From a virus: 40,903 nucleotides of DNA. The translations under genes and the position numbers were made by a program. Every line of letters begins with the position of its first letter. The stretch's first letter is position 1. Positions 1,990 to 40,225 of this stretch are shown here, one piece after another. The notes below the pieces were generated by a model. The model was given only the letters and a program-made list of their open reading frames with translations, was not told the origin of the DNA and searched no databases. The DNA lies in the IMG/VR virus record IMGVR_UViG_3300001202_000008, positions 1 through 40,903 of that record. The stretch is one strand, 5' to 3'.

Positions 1990-2318
1990 TTTTTCCTCAC
2001 AATCTCGATCTCTCGAGGCTCTCTCGCCTCTCTCCTCAATCTGGCCTTTTCTTGGTTGTGCGCGATCGCGGCCTCGAGATCGGGCTCGGGTGCATCATCG
2101 GGCAAGCCGTTCTTAATCATGTCATGCAATATCCGTTTTGCATTATCAGACATAGGTAACTTTGCGGCCTCGATGTAACGTATCTTTCGCCCGGCGTTGG
2201 TCCCTGTATAGCCGAGCATACGAGCAAAGGTGCCCGCGCTATAGCCTAGCTTATATCGATGATCTCTTATGGCGTTGCCGAGGTCTTTGAGCTCGGGGCG
2301 GTAAAATGCTCGGGTCAT
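1986..2318 (-). CDS. Helix-turn-helix DNA-binding protein
   Basis: HTH-like stretch LGYSAGTFARMLGYTGTNAGRKIRYIE. 4-nt overlaps at both ends. Confidence 0.55.
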   Translation of the reverse strand: MTRAFYRPELKDLGNAIRDHRYKLGYSAGTFARMLGYTGTNAGRKIRYIEAAKLPMSDNAKRILHDMIKNGLPDDAPEPDLEAAIAHNQEKARLRREAREPREIEIVRKK

Positions 2319-3001
2319 ATAAAACTATCTTGTTTTGGTTTTAGTGGATTTTCAGGCGATGAAACAAATAGGTCGGATTGTTTATATGCGTCGTGTATTC
2401 TTTGGCACGCTATTTCGAAATAATCAGGGTCTAGCTCTATGCCTGTGAATTTGCGCCCTAGTTTTGCGCAAGCAACGCCAGTTGTCCCACTTCCCATAAA
2501 TGGGTCTAAGATGTTTTGGGATTTGGATAAAAAACCTAGACACCACTCCATTAAAGCTACTGGCTTTTGCGTTGGGTGCAAATTTCCGTCTCTGCGAGGG
2601 AATGTCTTTTGCCTTACTGCTATATCCAAACTAGTCCAAGCAAGCTCACAGTCAGCTAGGCTAAATCCCGTCTCTGCCTCTGGTTTTCGCCAAGATAACC
2701 ACCCTTTGCTTCTTGGAAACAAATCCGCAAAATAATTTCCTCCCCAAACTATCCTCGGAAAAGGAATGGCGGCGATTAATTTTAGAGCTTGTTCTGGCCT
2801 ATCGTTGTCCCATGATTTGTTGGCCCATTTGGGGTTATCTCTGATTGATGATTGTGCATTTTTCTTGTCGGCACCAATGCCGTATGGTGGGTCGGTCAGA
2901 ATCGCATCAAAAGCAAGCAAAGGCATTATCTCAAGGCAGTCGCCAAGATACAAGGTGCAATCTCCTATTTGTTCACATCTAAAATCAGGTAGTTTTTTCA
3001 T
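2315..3001 (-). CDS. DNA N6-adenine (or N4-cytosine) methyltransferase, beta class (N6_N4_Mtase family)
   Basis: Motif IV ILTDPPYGIG is N-terminal; HPTQKPVALMEWCL and motif I ILDPFMGSGTTGVA are C-terminal, giving beta-class order. Confidence 0.9.
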   Translation of the reverse strand: MKKLPDFRCEQIGDCTLYLGDCLEIMPLLAFDAILTDPPYGIGADKKNAQSSIRDNPKWANKSWDNDRPEQALKLIAAIPFPRIVWGGNYFADLFPRSKGWLSWRKPEAETGFSLADCELAWTSLDIAVRQKTFPRRDGNLHPTQKPVALMEWCLGFLSKSQNILDPFMGSGTTGVACAKLGRKFTGIELDPDYFEIACQRIHDAYKQSDLFVSSPENPLKPKQDSFI

Positions 3002-3882: not shown

Positions 3883-4264
3883 CTATGACCGCCCTCTCGT
3901 GCCAGTTCATTAACGCGGCGCATGTTGTGATGATGTGGTGCTTTCGCTTTTCACCATCAGCGGTCGCCGCTTTTTGGGCCAAATACCCGACAAGCCAAAA
4001 CCAATCCCAATCGGTCTTTTGCTCATCATGGTCTTTTGGCCACCTTAAACGCTGATGCTCTCGCTCTCTCACGATGGCCGTGACAAAATCGTCATTCTCT
4101 GGCGTGTTGACGATTTCCTCGAGCTCATTGATGCGCCTCATGGCGCTCTCGATGATCTCGACCGGGTGAACCTTGCGACCCTTGACCGTCAAAACACTTT
4201 GCTCGGCAACGGCAACCGCCCTTAAGCATTCAAGCCCCTCTCTGAGCTCGAGGCTATCCATCAT
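3872..4264 (-). CDS. Hypothetical protein
   Basis: 130-aa ORF. The Trp-rich segment TDWDWFWLVGYLAQKA recalls phage NTP-pyrophosphohydrolase-like families, but I cannot support that assignment. Confidence 0.6.
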   Translation of the reverse strand: MMDSLELREGLECLRAVAVAEQSVLTVKGRKVHPVEIIESAMRRINELEEIVNTPENDDFVTAIVREREHQRLRWPKDHDEQKTDWDWFWLVGYLAQKAATADGEKRKHHIITTCAALMNWHERAVIDGS

Positions 4265-4718
4265 CGCTCACTTTCTTGCCATCAACCACATCGATGCGAG
4301 CACCATCGAGCAACGGGTGTTTTACGACATCGATGCTCACAACCTCAAGATCGCGATAGGTGCGATTTGTGCCATTGTCGCCGATGCTCACATCAAAACC
4401 GCCCTCTATAGTCCGAAAGCCGAGAGATAAGCCACTAAGCTCGCCATTGCGTATCTTGTCGGCGAGATCGCGGGTGTCATCAGTGATGACCATAGTGCCC
4501 TCGACCCTCAGGCCCTTTTTGTCCGATACAAGCTTGTGCCATTTGCCGATCGCGCCGCCCTCAGGCATCGCAAGCATCGGCACGGGCTTTCTCTCTTTGA
4601 TGGTGCGATCAAAGCACCCGGGCGACATGACATCATCAACATCATCAGCCTCGTTGTATAAGCTGGCATAGCCCTCGAGCTTTAGCTCCTCGGCTTTTTT
4701 CTTGGCGTCATCGGTCAT
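4254..4718 (-). CDS. HK97-type prohead protease paralogue (Peptidase S78/U35 fold), probably catalytically inactive
   Basis: Aligns by eye with the bona fide protease at 34020-34796: EGYAS..D..GD...PG.F....K..PML....IG.....GL.V.G......G.LSGLSLGFR....R...L.VVSIDVV..P. The His of MLWQHD is replaced (MLAMPE); the Ser is kept (GLSLGF). Confidence 0.7.
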   Translation of the reverse strand: MTDDAKKKAEELKLEGYASLYNEADDVDDVMSPGCFDRTIKERKPVPMLAMPEGGAIGKWHKLVSDKKGLRVEGTMVITDDTRDLADKIRNGELSGLSLGFRTIEGGFDVSIGDNGTNRTYRDLEVVSIDVVKHPLLDGARIDVVDGKKVSDDG

Positions 4719-5523: not shown

Positions 5524-6271
5524 TTAAACCTCCCTCATTCATAACGGTTTTAATATCGGCCCCAATATAACCCAAAAACTTCTCGCCTGTAAGGCACCTG
5601 TAAATACCAGACGCAAAAGCATAATTGTCTTTTGTGATATTGGGGTCGGCGTAATAGCAGTAAATTGCGTTTGACAAATCATTCAGGCCAACGCTTTTCG
5701 ATAATGCTGTAAATTTCTTTAGAGCTTTGGCTTTATCCGCTCGCCGAGACCTCATGAGTTTGGGGTTTATCTGCCCCCATAGCATCTCAAAACAAGCATT
5801 TATATTTGATGGTTCTAATAATGGTTCTTGTTGAGGGTTATTGTCTTGCAAAATTAGCGTGTGGTTTTGACCAATTTTGCATGTGGTTTTGCCTGATTTA
5901 GCATCTGGACTATCACCTGCTAAATTAGCATCTGGCGTTTTTTTAAAAGACTTCCCTCTCGGCTTTGATTTAACTATCGCCAGCTCATCAGGAATACAGA
6001 TTATTTCATCAACGCTTAGAGTGTATCTATATGACCCAAGATTGCCATCTTGATACCTTTGCCGCTCTCTCGTGAAATAACCCGCGACCTCGAGAGCCTT
6101 TAAATGGGTGCCGATAGTTTTTTCTTTTATGCCTGTTTTTTTAGACAAAGTGCTCACATATGGATAGCAAGAATGCTTCTCATCGGCATAATCTGCCAGC
6201 GCCACCAAGACAAATTTAGGCCCTGATTTTATTTGACACTCAAACGCCCACGTCAAGGCTTTGTTGCTCAT
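5411..6271 (-). CDS. Replication initiator-like winged-HTH protein
   Basis: N-terminus ALTWAFECQIKSGPKFVLVALADYADEKHSCYPYVSTLSKKTGIKEKTIGTHLKALEVAGY matches the typical phage/plasmid replication wHTH pattern. The iteron array lies inside the linker-coding part. Confidence 0.7.
   Translation of the reverse strand: MSNKALTWAFECQIKSGPKFVLVALADYADEKHSCYPYVSTLSKKTGIKEKTIGTHLKALEVAGYFTRERQRYQDGNLGSYRYTLSVDEIICIPDELAIVKSKPRGKSFKKTPDANLAGDSPDAKSGKTTCKIGQNHTLILQDNNPQQEPLLEPSNINACFEMLWGQINPKLMRSRRADKAKALKKFTALSKSVGLNDLSNAIYCYYADPNITKDNYAFASGIYRCLTGEKFLGYIGADIKTVMNEGGLSAKTFASRTGSSKPRGALAENSDRRRDAMRRNAERNA
5851..5950. repeat. Candidate origin: four about 14-bp iterons followed by an AT-rich tract
   Basis: AAATTAGCGTGTGG (5851), AATTTTGCATGTGG (5873), GATTTAGCATCTGG (5895) and AAATTAGCATCTGG (5922), spaced 22/22/27 bp, then GCGTTTTTTTAAAAG. 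Confidence 0.5.
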
Positions 6272-6726: not shown

Positions 6727-6900
6727 TTACCTCTTATGCTTTGAGCAAAAATCTTTTGATGAGACTGAGGAGAATACAGTCTCGGCGGTGTTGTCGGTGT
6801 GGATGACTAGCTTGGGTGGATGAAAACGGTAAACGCCCTTGCCAAACTTGCCCTTGAAATAACGGCACGTTGAGCAATTGACTTTCGGCCCTTTTTTCAA
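6727..6900 (-). CDS. Small Cys-containing protein (57 aa, TTG start), below the ORF-track cutoff
   Basis: (M)KKGPKVNCSTCRYFKGKFGKGVYRFHPPKLVIHTDNTAETVFSSVSSKDFCSKHKR. TTGA start/stop overlap with the upstream gene; the ORF ends 3 nt before the next ATG. Confidence 0.4.
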   Translation of the reverse strand: MKKGPKVNCSTCRYFKGKFGKGVYRFHPPKLVIHTDNTAETVFSSVSSKDFCSKHKR

Positions 6901-7304
6901 AACGACACACCGAGCTTGATGTCTCTGATGTGGCTCGCCACGCGGCGCTTTAGGTTGATCGACATAACCGCTCTTATATCAGACTGTGAGAACATCTCCT
7001 CGAGCAAGAGAGAGCTGTGCCAGTTATTCGATCGGGTCTTTTCTGGCGAGGGATTGTGAGCCGTGTCGCCGAGCCCATCGAGGTCATGATTGATGACGGT
7101 GATCGATCTCGCCTTGTTAGGTCGGCGCTTTACCCATCCCCGATCGACAAGGCCCTCAATCAAGCGATGCACGCCCGACTTTGACTTGAGGCCGAGGCCG
7201 TCTTTGATGTCATCGTAACTTGGCGCGACCCGGTGGGCGGCAATATGCGCGATGATAAACTCAAGGCATTGGCGTTGTTTTGGTGTCAAACTATAGGGTG
7301 TCAT
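6897..7304 (-). CDS. LexA N-terminal DNA-binding-domain protein without an S24 peptidase domain
   Basis: LTPKQRQCLEFIIAHIAAHRVAPSYDDIKDGLGLKSKSGVHRLIEGLVDRGWVKRRPNKARSI. ATG at 7304 is preceded by AGGAGAG. The C-terminal 70 aa have no Ala-Gly/Ser-Lys features. Confidence 0.7.
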   Translation of the reverse strand: MTPYSLTPKQRQCLEFIIAHIAAHRVAPSYDDIKDGLGLKSKSGVHRLIEGLVDRGWVKRRPNKARSITVINHDLDGLGDTAHNPSPEKTRSNNWHSSLLLEEMFSQSDIRAVMSINLKRRVASHIRDIKLGVSF

Positions 7305-7306
7305 GG

Positions 7307-7777
7307 TTAGTCTCTCCTCTTGAGATCGTTTCGGCTTTGGAGCTTTCGCTTGCCCCATCGATGCTTGTGCCCCGGGGGCGGTTTTTGAAAGCCTTGTCGT
7401 GTCTTGAGCTTTGGCCCGTTCCTACGTCGCCGTGCTTGTTGACCCGTCTCGCCACCTTGGCTCTTGGCTTTGGCAATCCGGGCAACGTCATCGGCGGTCT
7501 TGCGTTTATGGCAATCTGGCCTCAACGCTTGCCATTTGATCTCATCGCCCTCGTATAGCAAAGCATTAGGCACAACGTGGTCAAACTCAACCAAGAGATA
7601 AAAGTCACGCTCGCAACCGCACTCACAAACACCGTAATCGAGTATAAACTCTTTACAGTCATCAACCGTCATCTCTTTAACGATTGGGTGAGCGGTCATC
7701 CATTTATCAGATATGCGCTCAACCATAAGCCTAAGCTCATCGCGACGGACTCGGCGGCGCTTCATAAGATTAGGCAT
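7307..7777 (-). CDS. HNH endonuclease (second copy, different subfamily)
   Basis: CECGC....EFDHVVPNAL.....WQALRPDCHKRKTADDV, followed by a basic tail. Confidence 0.65.
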   Translation of the reverse strand: MPNLMKRRRVRRDELRLMVERISDKWMTAHPIVKEMTVDDCKEFILDYGVCECGCERDFYLLVEFDHVVPNALLYEGDEIKWQALRPDCHKRKTADDVARIAKAKSQGGETGQQARRRRNGPKLKTRQGFQKPPPGHKHRWGKRKLQSRNDLKRRD

Positions 7778-7979: not shown

Positions 7980-8179
7980 ATCGATCTCATATCACGCCAA
8001 GAATGCACGGCTTTAACCGCGAGGCGGTACTCCCAACCGCCATTGACTATGGTGTCGCGCAAAGCGCCTTGCTCGATCATCTCATCGATATAATGTTTTG
8101 CGGGCTTATCGTTGTCGTGCTCATAGCCGTTTTCGATCGCGTTTTCTAAGTTCTCATAAACATCATCAAATATTGCCAT
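7976..8179 (-). CDS. Hypothetical protein (67 aa)
   Basis: The ATG at 8179 (MAIFDDVYENL) has GAGG 9 nt upstream. The longer track ORF would overlap the methylase by 176 nt. Confidence 0.5.
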   Translation of the reverse strand: MAIFDDVYENLENAIENGYEHDNDKPAKHYIDEMIEQGALRDTIVNGGWEYRLAVKAVHSWRDMRSI

Positions 8180-8777
8180 CTTGAACCTCATCAAATTTGT
8201 CGGCTTGGTCGCCGAAATTATCCCACCCCTCACGGGTCTCTCTCGAGAACATATCGAGACGCCACGCATTAGGCACAAATTTCTCGGCGAGCGCGTAAGC
8301 CTCCTCAGGCTTTCGAGAATGCTCGCGAGCGACGCCATCAAAGCCCGATTGTATAGGCTTGATCGTTGGGTTGCCCATGCGCCCTATGAGAAACGGCTCG
8401 TTTGTTGATCTCAAGACGTAGCCCGTGCCCCATCGATACTTGCCCGGGCGATCGTGACCACACTTGAGAGGCTTGGGCTTGGTTTTCTTTGCCCATGAGC
8501 CCGCCGTCACATATTCAAAACCCCAAGCCTCGAGCGTCTTGACCGCCTCGGGTAACATCGGGTTTGTGGCCCATAACCAAAGGATGCAATCTTTGTTTGC
8601 GATCGTGTCAACTGGCATCGCTCTAATCTCATCGATCGTCATGCACTCATATTGATTTTGAGCACTCTTTTGCTCACCCTTTTTTGACCGCAACTCGAAT
8701 TGCCACGGCGGGTCGCTCATGATGAGATTGTACTTAAAGAGAGGTATCTGTGAAAAGGTGTCAAATGATGATGCCAT
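8166..8777 (-). CDS. MT-A70 family N6-adenine DNA methyltransferase
   Basis: LIMSDPPWQF, YECMTIDEIRAMPV, CILWLWATN, EAWGFEY, HSRKPEE, GWDNFGDQ. Confidence 0.9.
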   Translation of the reverse strand: MASSFDTFSQIPLFKYNLIMSDPPWQFELRSKKGEQKSAQNQYECMTIDEIRAMPVDTIANKDCILWLWATNPMLPEAVKTLEAWGFEYVTAGSWAKKTKPKPLKCGHDRPGKYRWGTGYVLRSTNEPFLIGRMGNPTIKPIQSGFDGVAREHSRKPEEAYALAEKFVPNAWRLDMFSRETREGWDNFGDQADKFDEVQDGNI

Positions 8778-10930: not shown

Positions 10931-11133
10931 GACAAACCCTCCTCATCAAAATCATCGAAAGATAACTCGACACCGTAATTGTCCTTTGCCGCTTTTATGA
11001 CATCTCGCCAGTTTTTACGCGGTATAAAGTTGTTAACGTCCCACGATCTACATGTGCTCATTGGCTTTCCAAGCTTCTCAGACATCTCTTTGACCGTTCC
11101 AAATACCGCGACGATTTTCGTGGTTTTTCTCAT
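10927..11133 (-). CDS. Cro-like small DNA-binding protein, first gene of the leftward operon
   Basis: VKEMSEKLGKPMSTCRSWDVNNFIPRKNWRDVIKAA fits the W..(R)N.IP..W HTH pattern of small alphaproteobacterial phage regulators. Its position next to the divergent promoter region supports the call. Confidence 0.55.
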   Translation of the reverse strand: MRKTTKIVAVFGTVKEMSEKLGKPMSTCRSWDVNNFIPRKNWRDVIKAAKDNYGVELSFDDFDEEGLS

Positions 11134-19769: not shown

Positions 19770-19800
19770 CTTCTCTCACCCCCACGATGATCGCTTCAGT

Positions 19801-19876
19801 GTAGTTGCTTTTAACTGCCTCGGCCGATGTAGTCAAAAATGACTGCGCATCCGGCAGGGTAGTCGCAATTAACTAC
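19801..19876. repeat. Dyad-motif array A: three GYAG-N10-CTRC units
   Basis: GTAGTTGCTTTTAACTGC (19801), GTAGTCAAAAATGACTGC (19829) and GTAGTCGCAATTAACTAC (19859), spaced 28/30 bp. Confidence 0.8.
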
Positions 19877-19884
19877 GCTGGATC

Positions 19885-20223
19885 TCATTTGCCGTCGCCA
19901 TCGGTATCGACTGGCGTTGCTTTGCCGTTCACATCGAGCCATTGCAAGATGATGTACTCGGTCTCGCCGCCATACTCGGCTTGAATGTGAGCGCAACCCG
20001 TCTCATCTTCGACAAGTTCATCGCCAACATAGTAGCGCCAAACATCATGCAGGGTCACGGTGACTTTAACGTCATCAGCATAGTGCCCTTTGATCTTGAT
20101 GCCTTGGCTTACGGCCTTTTCAATTGCCTTGGCGTCATCAGCGCCGATTGTGTCGCCATACTCGAGGCCGATGATGTGCTTGTCATCAACCGCCGCTCTT
20201 AAATGTTTCTCAAGTTCTTTCAT
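19885..20223 (-). CDS. Hypothetical acidic protein
   Basis: 112-aa ORF between the membrane proteins and array A. Confidence 0.55.
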   Translation of the reverse strand: MKELEKHLRAAVDDKHIIGLEYGDTIGADDAKAIEKAVSQGIKIKGHYADDVKVTVTLHDVWRYYVGDELVEDETGCAHIQAEYGGETEYIILQWLDVNGKATPVDTDGDGK

Positions 20224-23078: not shown

Positions 23079-25127
23079 TTAAAAAAAGCCAAACCCACCG
23101 CTAGACGTGCTCGTGATATCATAAATCGTGACGCTAACAAGCACAGATATTGTCTCGGCCCCCGCCGTGTTGCTATCCGTTATCGTGCATTTATACACGC
23201 CCGACAAGATTTCATCTATTCCCGGCGTTCCTGTAAAGGTTGTGCCGGCATCGTTTGGCGTGCCGATCGTTAAGACATCTCCCGATTGCCGCTCCCAGCT
23301 ATATGTAAATGGCGCAACCCCGTTGGTTAGCGAAACATTAACGGTTGGTGTTGTTGCGGCATTACCATCATTTGCCGACGCCTGCACGGGTGATGGTGTT
23401 GCCATAGCGGTAAAACCACTTGAATTTGATGCCGAGACAACATTGCCAGCTTGAGAGTCGAGCTCATTAACAATAGACCCTCGGCCTGTGATTACTACAT
23501 CATCAAGAGAGACATCGCCCTCAATTATTGCCGTGACGTCAGCACTCACCTCGGCAAACCTATAATTGTAAGCCTCATCAAAGTGCCTAGGTAAAGCTGT
23601 CTGTTGATGTGGCGGGGCGGTGCCAGTTTGCGGCAAGGCTGTTGTGTGCTTGTCTGAATGTTCTGTTTTCAAAACCAACTCGACTTGGCCCGTATCAACC
23701 CGCTCGGTTGTTTGTGTGATTATGGCCTGCCCCGTTAATCCAAATTGGGCGAGGTCCAAGTCCATTGCGTCACCTATATTGTAATTTAAAAACCGCCGCC
23801 CCACCAACATCGATAAGCCAGATATCTCAACACTTTCAAATGCTCTATAAATAGACAACTGCGCACCCTGAGACGCCGCCGTCACAAGTGAGAACGGTTG
23901 CTCTCTTAATCTTTCCTCGCCATGCAGGGTGACTAAAGCCGATATAGCAATCGACTCACTCTCGACATAAGCCCAATCATTTGCCTCACTTCTATATTTT
24001 GGGATTACGGTATTAAAGCCAACTCGGCGTTGCTTTACACCCGGCACAGACAAAGGGCCCTCGAGATCGGCCTCGGTGATCGTATCAAGAGAGACCTTGG
24101 GAGATGTTGAGATGACCCGCAAAATGCCGCCGTCATTTGTCGGCACGCAAGCACTCGCCTCTAAGATTAGCTTTAGATTGTTCCAAATCTCACCGTCTTC
24201 GCCGTTCTCATAAACGACACCCCCGAGGGTCCACCCGTTTGCATCCGCTATATTAGCGGCCTCAATGAATGAGGGTATGTCAATGGCATCAACCGGGAGA
24301 CCTCCCCCGCAAACATGCGACCCGTTTTGGTATCTGCCAAAAACATACGTCAAGGCGTGCAATGGTGGATTTTGTGAATAGGTGTAAGTTGCCTCTTGGC
24401 CTATCCTGTGAGAGCCCGACCCTCCCGCAATAGTGTCGTCTAACCTCGGGTCATAGCATTTCACCCCTCTAATCACGAGTGAGAATTTTGGTGGCCCGCC
24501 GCTATAGTGTGTCTCGTCGCTATCCAATAACATAGAGAATTGAGCTGCACACATACCTGATAGTTTGTGACCGCTACCCCAATGACTAAAGCCACCCGCA
24601 TTGGTGTTGAGGGCTGTGGCGGGCGTGTTGCCGAGGCGATTGTCGTGCCGCATGTACTTGTCATAATAACCGTTTGCGATGCCGCCCAAGCTGGCAAATG
24701 TTACCGGGTTATTGTTGACCAAAATACTATCTATAGATTGCACCGGGCCCGCGCCAGAATATACAAATGTTTGCGTCATCCAAGGGTTAGGAATATCCTC
24801 GCGATCACTGCCATGTGACTCTTGGTGAACAAGATTGCCATAGACCTTTGACCTGCCCATAACGTAAGGGAATGGCGTTGACGGGCCGATCGTGTAATCA
24901 TCGAGCGTCAAAACTGAGCGAGGCGGTTTTGCCGTCAACTGCGCAATAGCTCCCGCCGCCGATGAGATCGCCGCAAACGGCGCGGCAAGGGGTGGGGCTA
25001 TAAAGGACAAAACCCCCGCCGCAATACCCGCTACTTTTGAGATACCTTTTGCAATCTTAGACACGCCACGCCCTCTCAGGTAATAAGTCCACAACCGAGC
25101 AATATGGGTGCTCTGAGGGATAGCCAA
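23079..25127 (-). CDS. Host-specificity / central tail protein (lambda J-like, GTA g15-like) with a C-terminal Ig-like domain
   Basis: Gly/Ala-rich N-terminus, PKFSLVIRGVKCYDPR. C-terminal PFTYSWERQSGD...GVYKCTITD is Ig/PKD-like. An alternative GTG start at 25064 overlaps the upstream stop. Confidence 0.8.
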   Translation of the reverse strand: MAIPQSTHIARLWTYYLRGRGVSKIAKGISKVAGIAAGVLSFIAPPLAAPFAAISSAAGAIAQLTAKPPRSVLTLDDYTIGPSTPFPYVMGRSKVYGNLVHQESHGSDREDIPNPWMTQTFVYSGAGPVQSIDSILVNNNPVTFASLGGIANGYYDKYMRHDNRLGNTPATALNTNAGGFSHWGSGHKLSGMCAAQFSMLLDSDETHYSGGPPKFSLVIRGVKCYDPRLDDTIAGGSGSHRIGQEATYTYSQNPPLHALTYVFGRYQNGSHVCGGGLPVDAIDIPSFIEAANIADANGWTLGGVVYENGEDGEIWNNLKLILEASACVPTNDGGILRVISTSPKVSLDTITEADLEGPLSVPGVKQRRVGFNTVIPKYRSEANDWAYVESESIAISALVTLHGEERLREQPFSLVTAASQGAQLSIYRAFESVEISGLSMLVGRRFLNYNIGDAMDLDLAQFGLTGQAIITQTTERVDTGQVELVLKTEHSDKHTTALPQTGTAPPHQQTALPRHFDEAYNYRFAEVSADVTAIIEGDVSLDDVVITGRGSIVNELDSQAGNVVSASNSSGFTAMATPSPVQASANDGNAATTPTVNVSLTNGVAPFTYSWERQSGDVLTIGTPNDAGTTFTGTPGIDEILSGVYKCTITDSNTAGAETISVLVSVTIYDITSTSSGGFGFF

Positions 25128-34019: not shown

Positions 34020-34796
34020 TTATTTGCTCGTTGGTTTTAGGGCGTTCTTTAAGATTGAGTAAAACTCGCCCGTGCTTTCGGTGCCTGACTCCCTCAGACC
34101 ATCCTTACCAAGATTGTTCACCTTGACGGCGATCATTGCTTGGCTTTTGGAAAGGCCAAACTCATCTTGCATGAGCTTCTCCCATTCCCTTGTCGTCAAA
34201 GGTTCCCCCTTTGACAAACGATCTCGAATTTCCTCGAGGTCGGCTTTAACGTCGCCGACTCGGGCCTCGATATTCATTGGCATAGTCACAAGACTAATCT
34301 CGCGCAAGTCAATTTGCTTGAGGCGAGTGACCCTCTCATCGGCATCATACTCATATGTGCCCGGCAACATGCGATAGCCAATTGACATGCCGCCAAGAGC
34401 CCCGGCCTTTAAATGCTCATAAGCTCGCTTCTCGAGAGCGCCCGCCGCGAGATTGATCTTGCCATGCACCTTGAGGCCGTTCTCATCCTCAACGATCGAC
34501 TTGTAAACACCGATCGGCTCACGTTGATCGTGTTGCCATAACATCGGAATGAGGCGTTTTTCTTTCTTGATCTTGCGCAATGACTTTTTGAAAGCCCCGC
34601 GCACAACGATGTCACCGCCTTGATCGACATTACCGAATGTTGAGGCGTAACCTTCAAACTCACCCTCGACCTCGAGCATCTTGACCGACATCACCGCGTC
34701 AAATGTTTTGTTCTTTGCATCGATGCCGTTTTGGGCACCGAGCTCTTTTGTGAGCAACCCGCCAAGGTGCTCATCGGTTGTTAGCAGTTCCCTCAT
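34020..34796 (-). CDS. Prohead protease (HK97 family, S78/U35)
   Basis: FEGYASTFGNVDQGGDIV, PMLWQHD (His), GGMSIGY (Ser). The C-terminal part is scaffold-like. Confidence 0.9.
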   Translation of the reverse strand: MRELLTTDEHLGGLLTKELGAQNGIDAKNKTFDAVMSVKMLEVEGEFEGYASTFGNVDQGGDIVVRGAFKKSLRKIKKEKRLIPMLWQHDQREPIGVYKSIVEDENGLKVHGKINLAAGALEKRAYEHLKAGALGGMSIGYRMLPGTYEYDADERVTRLKQIDLREISLVTMPMNIEARVGDVKADLEEIRDRLSKGEPLTTREWEKLMQDEFGLSKSQAMIAVKVNNLGKDGLRESGTESTGEFYSILKNALKPTSK

Positions 34797-38308: not shown

Positions 38309-38858
38309 TGTTTAAACACCTTTGCTCTGAGACCGTGTTGAGGACACCAACGAAAAATCTCGAATTTCGTGGATGCGAAAGAAAAGGTTCCCCTCCGGTC
38401 TTTGTCGTGTCCTCTCTAAGTTTTTACCCTCCCCCCCGTCAAGTATAAGCCTGTATGTGCTCTCTGTGAGCGATGTGAGGGCTTTTCTCGTATATAGGTG
38501 AGACCCTCCTCATGGGGGCCGTCGTGTGTCTGTGTGCCTATATGTGACCATGTTCCTGATGTCGGGCAAATGGTGTCGATCGCTTGCTTTGCCCTTACCT
38601 CTTTGTCATCACCGTCTCATGTTCCGATACGTTCATATGCAGTACGAGAATGATTGTGTGATCGCATCCGTCGCGATGGTCACGGGCCTATACTATGGCA
38701 CCGTGGGCACATGCCGATGAGCATATGCTCGACCTCTATGCCCTTGGGGTTGTTGTGCCTACCCGTGAGTGATGGTTGTTGGCTCTCTTGCCGCTAAAGA
38801 GCGGGCCGCTATTCTCACCGATGAAAAGCCGTGCACGACATCATCATCAACCGATAGC
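38309..38858. other. 550-bp region without a convincing gene; candidate cos/late-control region
   Basis: The largest non-coding stretch, directly upstream of TerS. It contains a pyrimidine run CCCTCCCCCCC (38430-38440) and short inverted elements (GAGGACAC 38341 / GTGTCCTC 38408). Track ORFs here are short and frame-broken. Confidence 0.4.
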
Positions 38859-39305
38859 TTAGCACTGACCGCGATTGCAATAGCTACTCAATGCCAAGAG
38901 CAAGGCTCTATTAACCATCGTATTCTGGCAAGTCAACACAGTTTGCCCCGCGAGGTCCACCGTCCAAAACAATATGGCAAAGAAAAACGCCCAAGCCTTT
39001 ACGCCACTGAGCCCTCGAGCCACCAAGCACCGTCTAAACTCTGATGATGCGAAAGCTTTGTCGAATCCATCCTCAAGCAAGAGATCATGCACGGTGGCGG
39101 CGGCGAGTAGGTCGGTGCTATGCACATCAATGAGCCACTCAAGCCATCGCGGGGCCGAGACATCAACCTCAAAGCCCACGGGCACGATGAGCGTCCAATG
39201 ACTGTGCTTGCGCCCTATATCCCACGAGAGAGGCTTGGTGAGCTTATATAGCCGCCTTGTGCCCCAAATATGCTTGAATGATGTGAAAGATGTGAATGTC
39301 ATCAC
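38859..39305 (-). CDS. DUF1353-family protein
   Basis: LIVPVGFEVDVSAPRW......AATVHDLLLEDG...SEFRRCLVARGL. Confidence 0.7.
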   Translation of the reverse strand: MMTFTSFTSFKHIWGTRRLYKLTKPLSWDIGRKHSHWTLIVPVGFEVDVSAPRWLEWLIDVHSTDLLAAATVHDLLLEDGFDKAFASSEFRRCLVARGLSGVKAWAFFFAILFWTVDLAGQTVLTCQNTMVNRALLLALSSYCNRGQC

Positions 39306-39313
39306 GGTACCTC

Positions 39314-39503
39314 GTAGCGATATATGACTACTATGCCGGATTGGCAGTCAATAGCAACTACTGGGCCCCGCAGTCATAGCCGCCTACCAAGTACCGAGCC
39401 TCATGATATCCCGTAGTTGTTGCCGACTGCTATCGATCGTCAAAGCTGCTAGGGCAGTCACATATAGCTATTACGGCCGGAATTGGCAGTTAATCACGGC
39501 TAC
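39314..39503. repeat. Dyad-motif array B: six GYAG-N10-CTRC units
   Basis: GTAGCGATATATGACTAC (39314), GCAGTCAATAGCAACTAC (39344), GCAGTCATAGCCGCCTAC (39370), GTAGTTGTTGCCGACTGC (39413), GCAGTCACATATAGCTAT (39454, degenerate) and GCAGTTAATCACGGCTAC (39486). Confidence 0.85.
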
Positions 39504-40170
39504 CCTTCAGGAGCGCGGCCATGATCGCCAGTCTTTCGCCCTTGGTGCATTTATGATAGTTTGACGCCCACCTCTCGGCCTTGCGTTTGATCTGTTGTCT
39601 CTCGGCCTTATTGTTGCCCGCGTACTTGTGCCAATAAGGCTCGCATTCATCATAGCTCAACCAAAGGCTTTCGGTCACAACGCCGCTATGCGTCATCGTT
39701 TGGTAGTCTATGCGCCGCCATCCCTCGAGGAGATCATCATAAAGCTTTGATCTATAGCCGCTCAACATCACGCTCACACCGCCATCGGCCAACCGCTTGA
39801 GCTCCTCGATCAACAAGACATGCTCATCATCGTTCATCTCATATTCACCATACTCACCACCACCCTTGCGGGTCTCGGCCACATATGGCGGGTCGGCATA
39901 GATGAGCGTGCGTGGCGACGGGTGCCGCATCTCGCTTGCCATAAAGGCAAATGCGCAATCATTGATAATCTCAGCCCCTTCAGGGTAGTCACATTTGACT
40001 ATGGTTTCCTGATTTTTCTCTATGCCTATCTGATGCGATGATGGTGGCTTGTAATTCAGGATGACGCCCGAGCCGAGGAATAGCTCAATATACGTGTCGT
40101 GAGGTGGCATGAGAGAGATTATGCGCTCTTTGACGCCCGCGCCCGCTTTACTTCCAAAATATCCACTCAT
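39490..40170 (-). CDS. Dam-like (D12 class, alpha) N6-adenine DNA methyltransferase
   Basis: YFGSKAG...LMPPHDTYIELFLGSGV (motif I) comes before LIYADPPYV (motif IV). Confidence 0.85.
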   Translation of the reverse strand: MSGYFGSKAGAGVKERIISLMPPHDTYIELFLGSGVILNYKPPSSHQIGIEKNQETIVKCDYPEGAEIINDCAFAFMASEMRHPSPRTLIYADPPYVAETRKGGGEYGEYEMNDDEHVLLIEELKRLADGGVSVMLSGYRSKLYDDLLEGWRRIDYQTMTHSGVVTESLWLSYDECEPYWHKYAGNNKAERQQIKRKAERWASNYHKCTKGERLAIMAALLKGSRD

Positions 40171-40181
40171 TGAGATCCACC

Positions 40182-40225
40182 GTAGTTGTCTATAACTGCG
40201 TGATCTAGTAGCCGTTTATGACTGC
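40182..40225. repeat. Dyad-motif array C: two GYAG-N10-CTRC units
   Basis: GTAGTTGTCTATAACTGC (40182) and GTAGCCGTTTATGACTGC (40208). Confidence 0.75.

Follow-up and report, generated by a model that had tools for sequence, protein, structure and literature searches.

The self-regulating DNA methylases M.SsoII, M.Ecl18kI, M.EcoRII, and M.MspI are C5 enzymes with an N-terminal helix-turn-helix (HTH), and the C-proteins are separate HTH proteins that act on boxes of the GACT-N3-AGTC type, which also occur as tandem dyads. Short operators are found in sets in temperate phages, as with the stoperators of mycobacteriophage L5, the conserved inverted repeats of phiC31, and the CI flanking sites of coliphage 186. 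In this study, we analysed a stretch of viral DNA of 40,903 nucleotides (IMG/VR record IMGVR_UViG_3300001202_000008, positions 1 to 40,903; the whole stretch is called the window below) in which an 18-bp dyad motif, GYAG-N10-CTRC, is arrayed at 39314-39503 between a gene for a Dam-like adenine methylase and a DUF1353 gene. An earlier note, made from the letters of the window alone, had suggested that the array could be the operators of a dimeric DNA-binding protein and knew of no described regulator with such a site. The first point agrees with our results, since the units behave as two conserved half-sites of a putative binding protein, and we still found no such regulator in the literature.

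We hold with moderate confidence that the units are operators for a dimeric protein and part of a portable methylase cassette, with the methylase as the likeliest binder and the extra units as auxiliary or roadblock sites. Such a system would resemble the self-regulating methylases and the C-boxes in having one or more dyad operators in the promoter region of a methylase gene, so that a potentially harmful DNA-modifying enzyme is checked by a site beside its own gene. Unlike those systems, the cassette has neither an HTH nor a separate regulator gene, its half-site reads RYAG/CTRY around a 10-bp centre, the sites number from 2 to at least 6 and lie on both sides of the gene, and the enzyme is an orphan methylase of phages and insertion sequences (ISs). 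We rejected membership in the M.SsoII type because the dedicated HTH region is not present, although the mechanism may be analogous, and membership in the C-protein class because no separate small HTH controller gene lies beside the arrays and the motif differs. The sites of L5, phiC31, and 186 are also many copies of a short intergenic site, operon ends included, for which roadblocks or looping have been proposed, but they belong to the immunity repressor and are spread genome-wide, whereas the units described here are confined to the methylase cassette and one distant cluster and move with the methylase from one unrelated phage to another.

Dyad units and a putative methylase promoter

The motif has 10 exact matches in the window, starting at 19801, 19829, and 19859, at 39314, 39344, 39370, 39413, and 39486, and at 40182 and 40208. 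In 100 dinucleotide-preserving shuffles of the window, which defined the chance expectation, the mean was 1.83 (sd 1.33, maximum 6) and none reached 10, so the excess proposed in the earlier note withstands comparison with shuffled controls. With one near-copy there are 11 units, all in three intergenic spots that make up about 1% of the window and 3 of its 22 intergenic regions. The note had counted six array copies, and 11 copies in non-coding DNA; five of the six are exact and the sixth (39454) ends in CTAT instead of CTRC, and the clusters are intergenic, with the units at 39486 and 40208 overlapping coding sequence by a few bases. The form GYAGT...ACTRC, described as usual, is exact in only 6 of the 11 units. 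The relaxed motif RYAG-N10-CTRY matches 13 times, with 11 matches in the three clusters, one within the methylase coding sequence (39985), and one at 24560 that is probably due to chance. When up to two mismatches were allowed, 30 copies were found against 33.8 expected. As these poorer copies are not enriched genome-wide, the signal is the tight clustering of good copies, which repeat a dyad site above chance in non-coding DNA. The units and the methylase gene are as follows; start-to-start spacings of units are irregular, at 26-43 bp.

39314-39331: array unit 1, GTAGCGATATATGACTAC; adjoins GAGG, the Shine-Dalgarno sequence of the DUF1353 gene
39344-39361: array unit 2, GCAGTCAATAGCAACTAC; CCGGATTG stands just before it
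39370-39387: array unit 3, GCAGTCATAGCCGCCTAC; GGGCCC in the spacer toward unit 2
39413-39430: array unit 4, GTAGTTGTTGCCGACTGC
39454-39471: array unit 5, the near-copy, GCAGTCACATATAGCTAT; CTAT end, fits the relaxed RYAG-N10-CTRY only
39486-39503: array unit 6, GCAGTTAATCACGGCTAC; covers the methylase stop codon (39490-39492); CCGGAATTG stands just before it
39490-40170, minus strand: compact Dam-like (D12-class) N6-adenine methylase of 226 amino acids; Pfam PF02086 at 1.9e-8
39985-40002: intragenic unit, +168 from the methylase start codon; same position in loci L246, L247, and L004
40182-40199: leader unit between the putative -10 and the methylase start codon, then GGTGGATCTCA-ATG; kept in L246
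40205-40233, minus strand: putative methylase promoter; -35 TTGACA (40233-40228), 17-bp spacer, weak -10 TACTAG (40210-40205)
40208-40225: promoter unit; begins at -55 relative to the methylase ATG and occupies the spacer behind TTGACA-tc, an arrangement shared with the IS66-type homologues
19801-19876: third cluster, made up of three units; the array that follows the L247 methylase is collinear with it

The placement of the first unit against the DUF1353 Shine-Dalgarno sequence and of the sixth across the methylase stop codon, and the shared flank CCGGA(A)TTG before 39344 and 39486, were all as the earlier note had them.

The putative promoter was read straight from the sequence, and transcription from it is predicted to begin a few bases past 40205. 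Its minus-strand layout is cgTTGACAtc-GCAGTCATAAACGGCTAC, and it is homologous to TTGACA-N17-TATGCT of 40 IS-type loci as well as to the corresponding parts of L246 and L247; the unit at 40208-40225 begins 2 bp after TTGACA, as in the 40 IS-type promoters. None of the array units (39314-39503) coincides with a predicted promoter. A consensus scan called neither a promoter nor a terminator in 39306-39489, and the stretch from the methylase to DUF1353, terS, and terL has no predicted intrinsic terminator. We discarded the idea that every unit is a promoter, since only the unit behind TTGACA qualifies and the scan called none in the arrays.

An AlphaFold model of the methylase (pLDDT 88) consists of a Dam-like catalytic core and a C-terminal helical hairpin. 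The best structural match is E. coli Dam, whose target-recognition domain is lacking. Invariant in the family are FxGxG, DPPY, and the sequence RQxIKRKAxRWA in the C-terminal hairpin. Judged by these motifs the enzyme is probably catalytically active, and the modelled hairpin could contact DNA, though it is not a known DNA-binding domain. No HTH was found in the methylase in Pfam or NCBIfam. The intragenic unit at +168 is present at four loci whose methylases are 44-73% identical (the window, L246 at 9852, L247 at 10169, and L004). Its first codon is the rare ATA or GTA in the three loci of the window's clade, which suggests constraint at the DNA level.

Distribution of the motif with the methylase

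Methylase homologues of 40-73% identity with an adjoining dyad occur in HK97-like, P22-like, P2-like, and other phages. Using the methylase protein, we retrieved 80 viral contigs (40-47% identity, mostly P2-like prophages); retrieved loci cover 6-10 kb on each side, and statements on what is shared or absent apply within those stretches. Over these 80 loci, the 200 bp leading up to the methylase start hold 83 relaxed units, while other bins of that length mostly hold about 0-7, with a few secondary peaks of 10-14. Viral loci without RYAG units carry homologous ones in which the half-site is AYNGTCA and the flanks fall into the same three classes (unit + gtGGTACC, unit + gyTGGCCA, and unit + gCTGCAG). 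By tblastn, the methylase is the only window protein common to the P2-like viral loci. We also considered whether the motif is tied to the phage backbone and rejected this, as 80 terL relatives (at most 77% identical) showed background motif density and no arrays in the retrieved stretches, which in the closest relative, L081, include only 783 bp upstream. The methylase has at least 645 homologues, and closer ones to that of the window are these:

L246: methylase 73% identical; same phage type as the window (terL 91%); same two upstream units, and four units or near-units before DUF1353
L247: methylase 70%; P22-like, only the methylase shared; TTGACA-tc-unit upstream, three or four units downstream
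L372: methylase 65%; unrelated phage contig; three or four units upstream, three downstream
L370: methylase 57%; unrelated phage contig; five units upstream, two downstream
L371: methylase 53%; unrelated phage contig; no units

L247, L370, and L372 thus have only the methylase in common with the window. The link of the motif to the methylase cassette is solid. The earlier note had proposed that the GNAT/methylase/DUF1353 group has its own control; the sites are indeed tied to this corner of the genome, but the controlled unit would be the methylase cassette, as L246 lacks GNAT and keeps the sites. Among cultured phages and E. coli, there is no close relative of the window at the DNA level. The methylase is encoded by cultured Peduoviridae (Salmonella SEN4, SEN5, SW3, and SI7, and Klebsiella 3LV2017), where the repeats are unannotated.

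Comparison of the window with L246 bears on a further explanation, in which the arrays are conserved mobile regulatory or boundary linker DNA derived from the methylase promoter, with no dedicated binder, and the methylase and adjoining accessory genes pass from phage to phage by homologous recombination at them. PeSLs of T4-type phages, which combine a stem-loop terminator with an early promoter, are mobile regulatory cassettes of this kind (PMC2839356, PMC4122927), and as composite promoter-terminator motifs they mediate modular shuffling (PMC4122927). Here, too, short conserved repeats border variable accessory genes and recur in different phages at changes in gene content. The arrays are homologous between unrelated phages, spacers included (ctcggccg, tagatc, and ggtacc), and they mark points of insertion or deletion: GNAT and two neighbours are present in the window and not in L246, and the reverse is true of a 181-amino-acid gene after DUF1353. 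In the P2-like prophage L030, direct repeats of about 70 bp with two units each (5870-5940 and 7020-7085) flank the methylase and one open reading frame (ORF). Unlike in PeSLs, however, only one unit per array is associated with a promoter and there is no selected stem; each PeSL repeat joins a stem-loop terminator to a sigma-70 early promoter, but the six-unit region shows no excess folding, and neither promoters nor terminators were called in 39306-39489. Moreover, divergence between the window and L246 has affected unit interiors and spacers and spared the outer RYAG/CTRY, which argues for selection on a recognition sequence rather than mere homology. We consider the linker explanation unlikely.

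In a scan of bacterial genomes, the methylase was found to be multi-copy, with at least 13 copies in one gammaproteobacterial genome and at least 9 in another, and many methylase contigs were 1-3 kb long, as is typical of collapsed repeats. The first of these genomes contained 13 identical (100%) copies of a 2,267-bp element with terminal inverted repeats that encodes the methylase and then an IS66 transposase. An IS66-family transposase (PF03050 at 1e-47) directly follows the methylase in 58 of 80 genomic loci and in none of the viral loci. These elements, which encode only methylase and transposase, form a large and diverse IS66 branch with a Dam-like methylase as first gene, replacing tnpA/tnpB (L224 5849-8115, L226-L245, L202-L223, L170, and others). 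In the literature, we found neither the motif nor any IS66 element with this methylase described.

About 40 distinct IS promoters have the near-consensus form cTTGACA-nC-ATAG-N10-C-TATGCT, and in all of them the dyad begins about 55 bp ahead of the ATG. It takes up the 17-bp spacer and runs into the -10, and the promoter serves both methylase and transposase. Both ends change together in IS variants (GTAG..CTAC), and pair 1-18 is complementary in 97% of IS units against 80% expected. Because the window, L246, and L247 share this layout, the motif would have been an operator-like element of the methylase promoter first, and then been multiplied by phages. As a test of the model, we searched metagenomes for the exact promoter-plus-dyad pattern, resulting in 103 usable matches, of which 85 (83%) are followed by this methylase.

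Dam sites also lie in the transposase promoters of IS10 and IS50, which in addition sequester the ribosome-binding site by fold-back in read-through transcripts. The left end of the IS66-type element is similar in that it carries a promoter, a site overlapping the -10, and a leader repeat; this inverted repeat in the 5' leader, GCTGTTGATCC-N11-GGATCAACAGC, could hide the Shine-Dalgarno sequence in read-through transcripts by analogy with IS10 and IS50. Unlike those elements, the IS66-type element brings its own methylase-like gene instead of using host Dam, and its conserved site is not GATC.

Evidence on a putative binder and on rival explanations

The half-site type follows the methylase clades in a neighbour-joining tree:

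Insertion sequences: ATAG
Two P2-like groups: RYAGWCR and AYNGTCA
Clade of the window: GYAGTYA

This agreement favours a co-evolving binder encoded by the cassette. From it we infer that the binder is most likely the methylase itself, which is favoured because the ISs encode only methylase and transposase, the phages lack the transposase, and the hosts are wide-ranging. The polarity of the units noted earlier (GCAG..CTAC on the sense strand) exists in the window's clade and is not seen in P2-like units.

The earlier note had looked for the binder among the regulators of the phage itself, its LexA-DBD, XRE, HTH, and Cro-like proteins. Of these, the LexA-DBD protein (6897-7358) is the best candidate. 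The LexA box of Gammaproteobacteria is CTGT-N8-ACAG, a 16-bp dyad with an AT-rich 8-bp centre. The units of the window contain YAGT-N8-ACTR, which has the same geometry with one base off per half-site. The LexA-DBD protein matches the LexA DNA-binding domain family (PF01726 at 1e-11) and has a homologue in L246, which also has arrays. In addition, AYNGTCA units with T at position 3 in both halves (ACTGTCA-N4-TGACAGT) are true E. coli-type LexA boxes; they lie 100-250 bp upstream of the methylase in L017, L018, L048, L075, and related P2-like loci, and their G/C-bearing neighbours do not match. However, none of the four regulators was found in the retrieved stretches of L247, L370, L372, the P2-like phages, or the IS66 elements despite their arrays, and no unit lies near the four regulator genes or in the divergent region at 10931-10978. 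The units also differ from LexA boxes in having A and not T as the second half-site base in the window, in being arrayed rather than single, and in following the methylase into hosts and elements with a different LexA motif. We therefore rejected membership in the LexA/SOS class, where a CTGT match is found only in some P2-like variants, and regard a regulator of the phage's own as an unlikely binder.

The dyads could instead be the methylase's own recognition sites, with their state (fully methylated, hemimethylated, or unmethylated) setting promoter activity or the binding of another protein, as with Dam sites in the IS10/IS50 transposase promoters, pap, and agn43. An adjacent adenine methylase that is probably active (FxGxG and DPPY being invariant) and that lacks Dam's target-recognition domain would suit this, as would the IS dyad overlapping the -10 of a promoter that also drives the transposase, so that the reading is attractive for the insertion sequences. 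Yet no adenine position is common to ATAG, RYAGWCR, AYNGTCA, and GYAGTYA, and a recognition sequence should be dispersed, whereas good copies occur almost only in clusters. A universal target at the position-3 adenine was ruled out, as a whole P2-like clade has G, C, or T there. A methylation-target cluster or epigenetic switch is improbable in our view.

Whether the units act as protein sites or as structures can be judged from folding and covariation. The region 39295-39515 (221 nt) folds like its shuffles on both strands (z = -0.23 and -0.11), with no sign of an intrinsic terminator or a structured RNA, and it has no match to an Rfam family or tRNA. Complementarity of inner pairs equals the expectation from base frequencies in 76 distinct P2-like units and 40 IS units (38% vs 36% for pair 5-14). 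What is conserved is the two half-sites, and the dyad extends to about 24 bp, AGC-RYAGWCR-N4-YGWCTRY-GCT. Conservation of half-site sequence without inner-pair covariation is the signature of a dimeric DNA-binding protein and not of a selected hairpin. Hence, the short RNA hairpins considered in the earlier note are not supported for 39314-39503, and RNA or DNA hairpins were set aside for this region.

An explanation by hairpins in RNA or single-stranded DNA, or by cruciforms, acting as processing sites, attenuators, terminators, or elements like the repetitive extragenic palindromic (REP) sequences, draws on other places. The third cluster (19795-19885) is more stable than its shuffles (z = -3.8 for the minus and -5.8 for the plus strand), z is about -3 for several arrays elsewhere, a palindromic central tetramer is present in 17 of 36 even-length spacers where about 1 in 16 is expected, and the GTAG head recalls REP elements. 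Apart from the folding and covariation results above, it is opposed by the weakness of a 4-7-bp stem with mismatches, by a C-A mismatch at pair 2-17 of the sense RNA in 11 of 18 window-clade units, and by the position of the dyad upstream of the transcription start in the insertion sequences. Structure is thus a very improbable basis for the units. Membership among REP elements and bacterial interspersed mosaic elements (BIMEs) was rejected because there is no selected stem and the copies in the window and in the loci examined are tied to one gene instead of being dispersed; REP elements have a GTAG head and then an imperfect palindrome with a stable stem, number hundreds in a host chromosome, and are associated with a RAYT transposase. 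Replication-origin iterons, which are direct repeats in regular helical phase beside an initiator gene, do not fit either, as the units are irregularly spaced dyads with no adjacent initiator gene in the window. Among known motifs, none of OxyR, NrdR, CRP, FNR, Fis, Ogr (TGT-N12-ACA), LexA, REP, and the C-box fits in sequence or spacing. By analogy, the system appears to work like multi-site operators and self-regulated methylase genes, outside the M.SsoII, C-box, PeSL, REP, LexA, and iteron classes.

Several observations weigh against methylase-bound operators. The methylase has no recognisable DNA-binding domain beyond the catalytic fold and the C-terminal helical hairpin, and although the half-sites change from clade to clade, the basic residues best conserved in that hairpin are invariant. 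The -10 in the window is weak; as it lacks T at position 6, the putative methylase promoter was not called by the consensus scan. An operator model requires neither the folding of the third cluster and of several foreign arrays nor the palindromic centres of so many spacers. The homologue in L371 has no units, and since the loci span only 6-10 kb on each side, a shared gene farther away is possible in the phages. Finally, 18 of the 103 promoter-plus-dyad matches are not followed by the methylase, so the association is strong but not exclusive; about 12 of these 18 come from marine phage contigs in which a promoter-in-palindrome recurs and the retrieved stretches contain no methylase.

The marine phage-like contigs (GC about 0.44) have a promoter in a long palindrome, aaaaagaGGTTGACAG[CT]ATAGCA-N6-TGCTAT[GA]CTGTatataa, before many small genes (L314, with 5 modules in 6 kb, L356, L365, L307, L311, L344, and L256), and its arms covary between modules (ACAGC/GCTGT, ACAGT/ACTGT, and ACACT/AGTGT). 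A direct scan of viral contigs for double units resulted in 5 loci resembling unrelated GTAGTC-type palindromes. Such GTAGTC..GACTAC arrays without a methylase (L163 1225-1272, L165 3064-3141, L162 4710-4800, and L161 5438-5486) include 30-bp iteron-like tandem repeats in contigs of 262 kb and 460 kb, the GC-rich GTAGTCC-N4-GGACTAC, and a pair upstream of an inovirus-like HTH gene. They are probably unrelated systems.

Neighbouring features and a proposed role for the sites

The genes around the array (GNAT, methylase, and DUF1353) are all on the minus strand, and terS and terL come next, beyond a gap. The last gene (19885-20223) of the long late operon, a gene for which no homologues were found in viral contigs, is followed by the third cluster, and the cluster in turn by a terminator hairpin on the minus strand. 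Neighbouring features are:

38859-39305, minus strand: DUF1353 gene (PF07087 at 6e-10), the first gene after the array; likely ATG at 39302; same-position homologue in L246
40216-40587, minus strand: GNAT acetyltransferase gene; its 3' end holds the -35 and part of the promoter unit; absent from L246
19740-19775, minus strand: intrinsic terminator hairpin with U-run, directly beyond the third cluster; -27.6 kcal/mol, z = -3.6; not called by a simple terminator scan
19819-19828, 19847-19858, 39332-39343, 39362-39369, 39472-39485, and 40200-40207: palindrome-bearing spacers of the window

Spacers after the units contain short palindromes resembling restriction sites, CGGCCG, CCGG, GGGCCC, and GATC in the window's clade and, in the P2-like loci L001-L080, GGTACC, TGGCCA, CTGCAG, and CAGCTG, which stand at a constant distance behind the unit. 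With six flanking bases on each side, the third cluster forms an imperfect palindrome of about 88 nt, which the six-unit array does not do. The 550 bp at 38309-38858 between DUF1353 and terS have no convincing ORF, and L246 has its 181-amino-acid gene there; this segment could be a decayed gene or a packaging (cos/pac) region. The phage has three DNA methylase genes, N6_N4 (2315-3001), MT-A70 (8166-8777), and the Dam-like gene (39490-40170), compared with five in L246. The tetramer GATC is more frequent in the window than expected (283 vs 158). A second prohead-protease-like gene in the early region (4254-4718, Peptidase_S78 at 1.8e-23), kept in L246, is separate from the ORF at 34020-34796, which adjoins ORFs of portal and capsid size.

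Returning to operators bound by a cassette-encoded protein, we propose the following role for the sites. The methylase would be an independently expressed accessory gene with its own promoter, and occupation of the promoter unit (40208-40225) would repress it, resulting in negative autoregulation. The other units may be auxiliary operators that act cooperatively or by looping: six at 39314-39503, one at +168, and three at 19801-19876. In particular, the six dyads from the stop codon onwards could be bound cooperatively with the two upstream units and the intragenic one. The array could also be a protein roadblock that keeps methylase transcription out of the late operon (DUF1353, terS, and terL onwards), and the reverse; the three units at 19801-19876 sit at the other end of that operon, beside a terminator.

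We further put forward, as a tentative and less likely proposal, that the compact Dam-like enzyme is both methylase and repressor, reading a dyad of about 24-26 bp, (CAnC)RYAG-N10-CTRY(GnTG), and forming a portable control module that gates the transposase in IS66 elements and is arrayed in phages. If so, IS66-type transposons would gate their transposase with a module of their own, independent of host Dam and perhaps coupled to replication via methylation state, and phages would have amplified the site into arrays that insulate an accessory gene from the late operon, perhaps bracketing or looping it.

Overall, our analysis would give a function to a conspicuous unannotated repeat of cultured Peduoviridae, of many prophages, and of a previously unremarked IS66 branch. 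It would mean that a family of adenine methylases controls its own gene and neighbours through arrayed operators, and it would show an accessory gene carrying its own insulation when hopping between phage backbones. The dyad can be a simple sequence marker for finding methylase cassettes and their boundaries. It also raises the idea that some transposons bring a methylase-based switch for the expression of their transposase.

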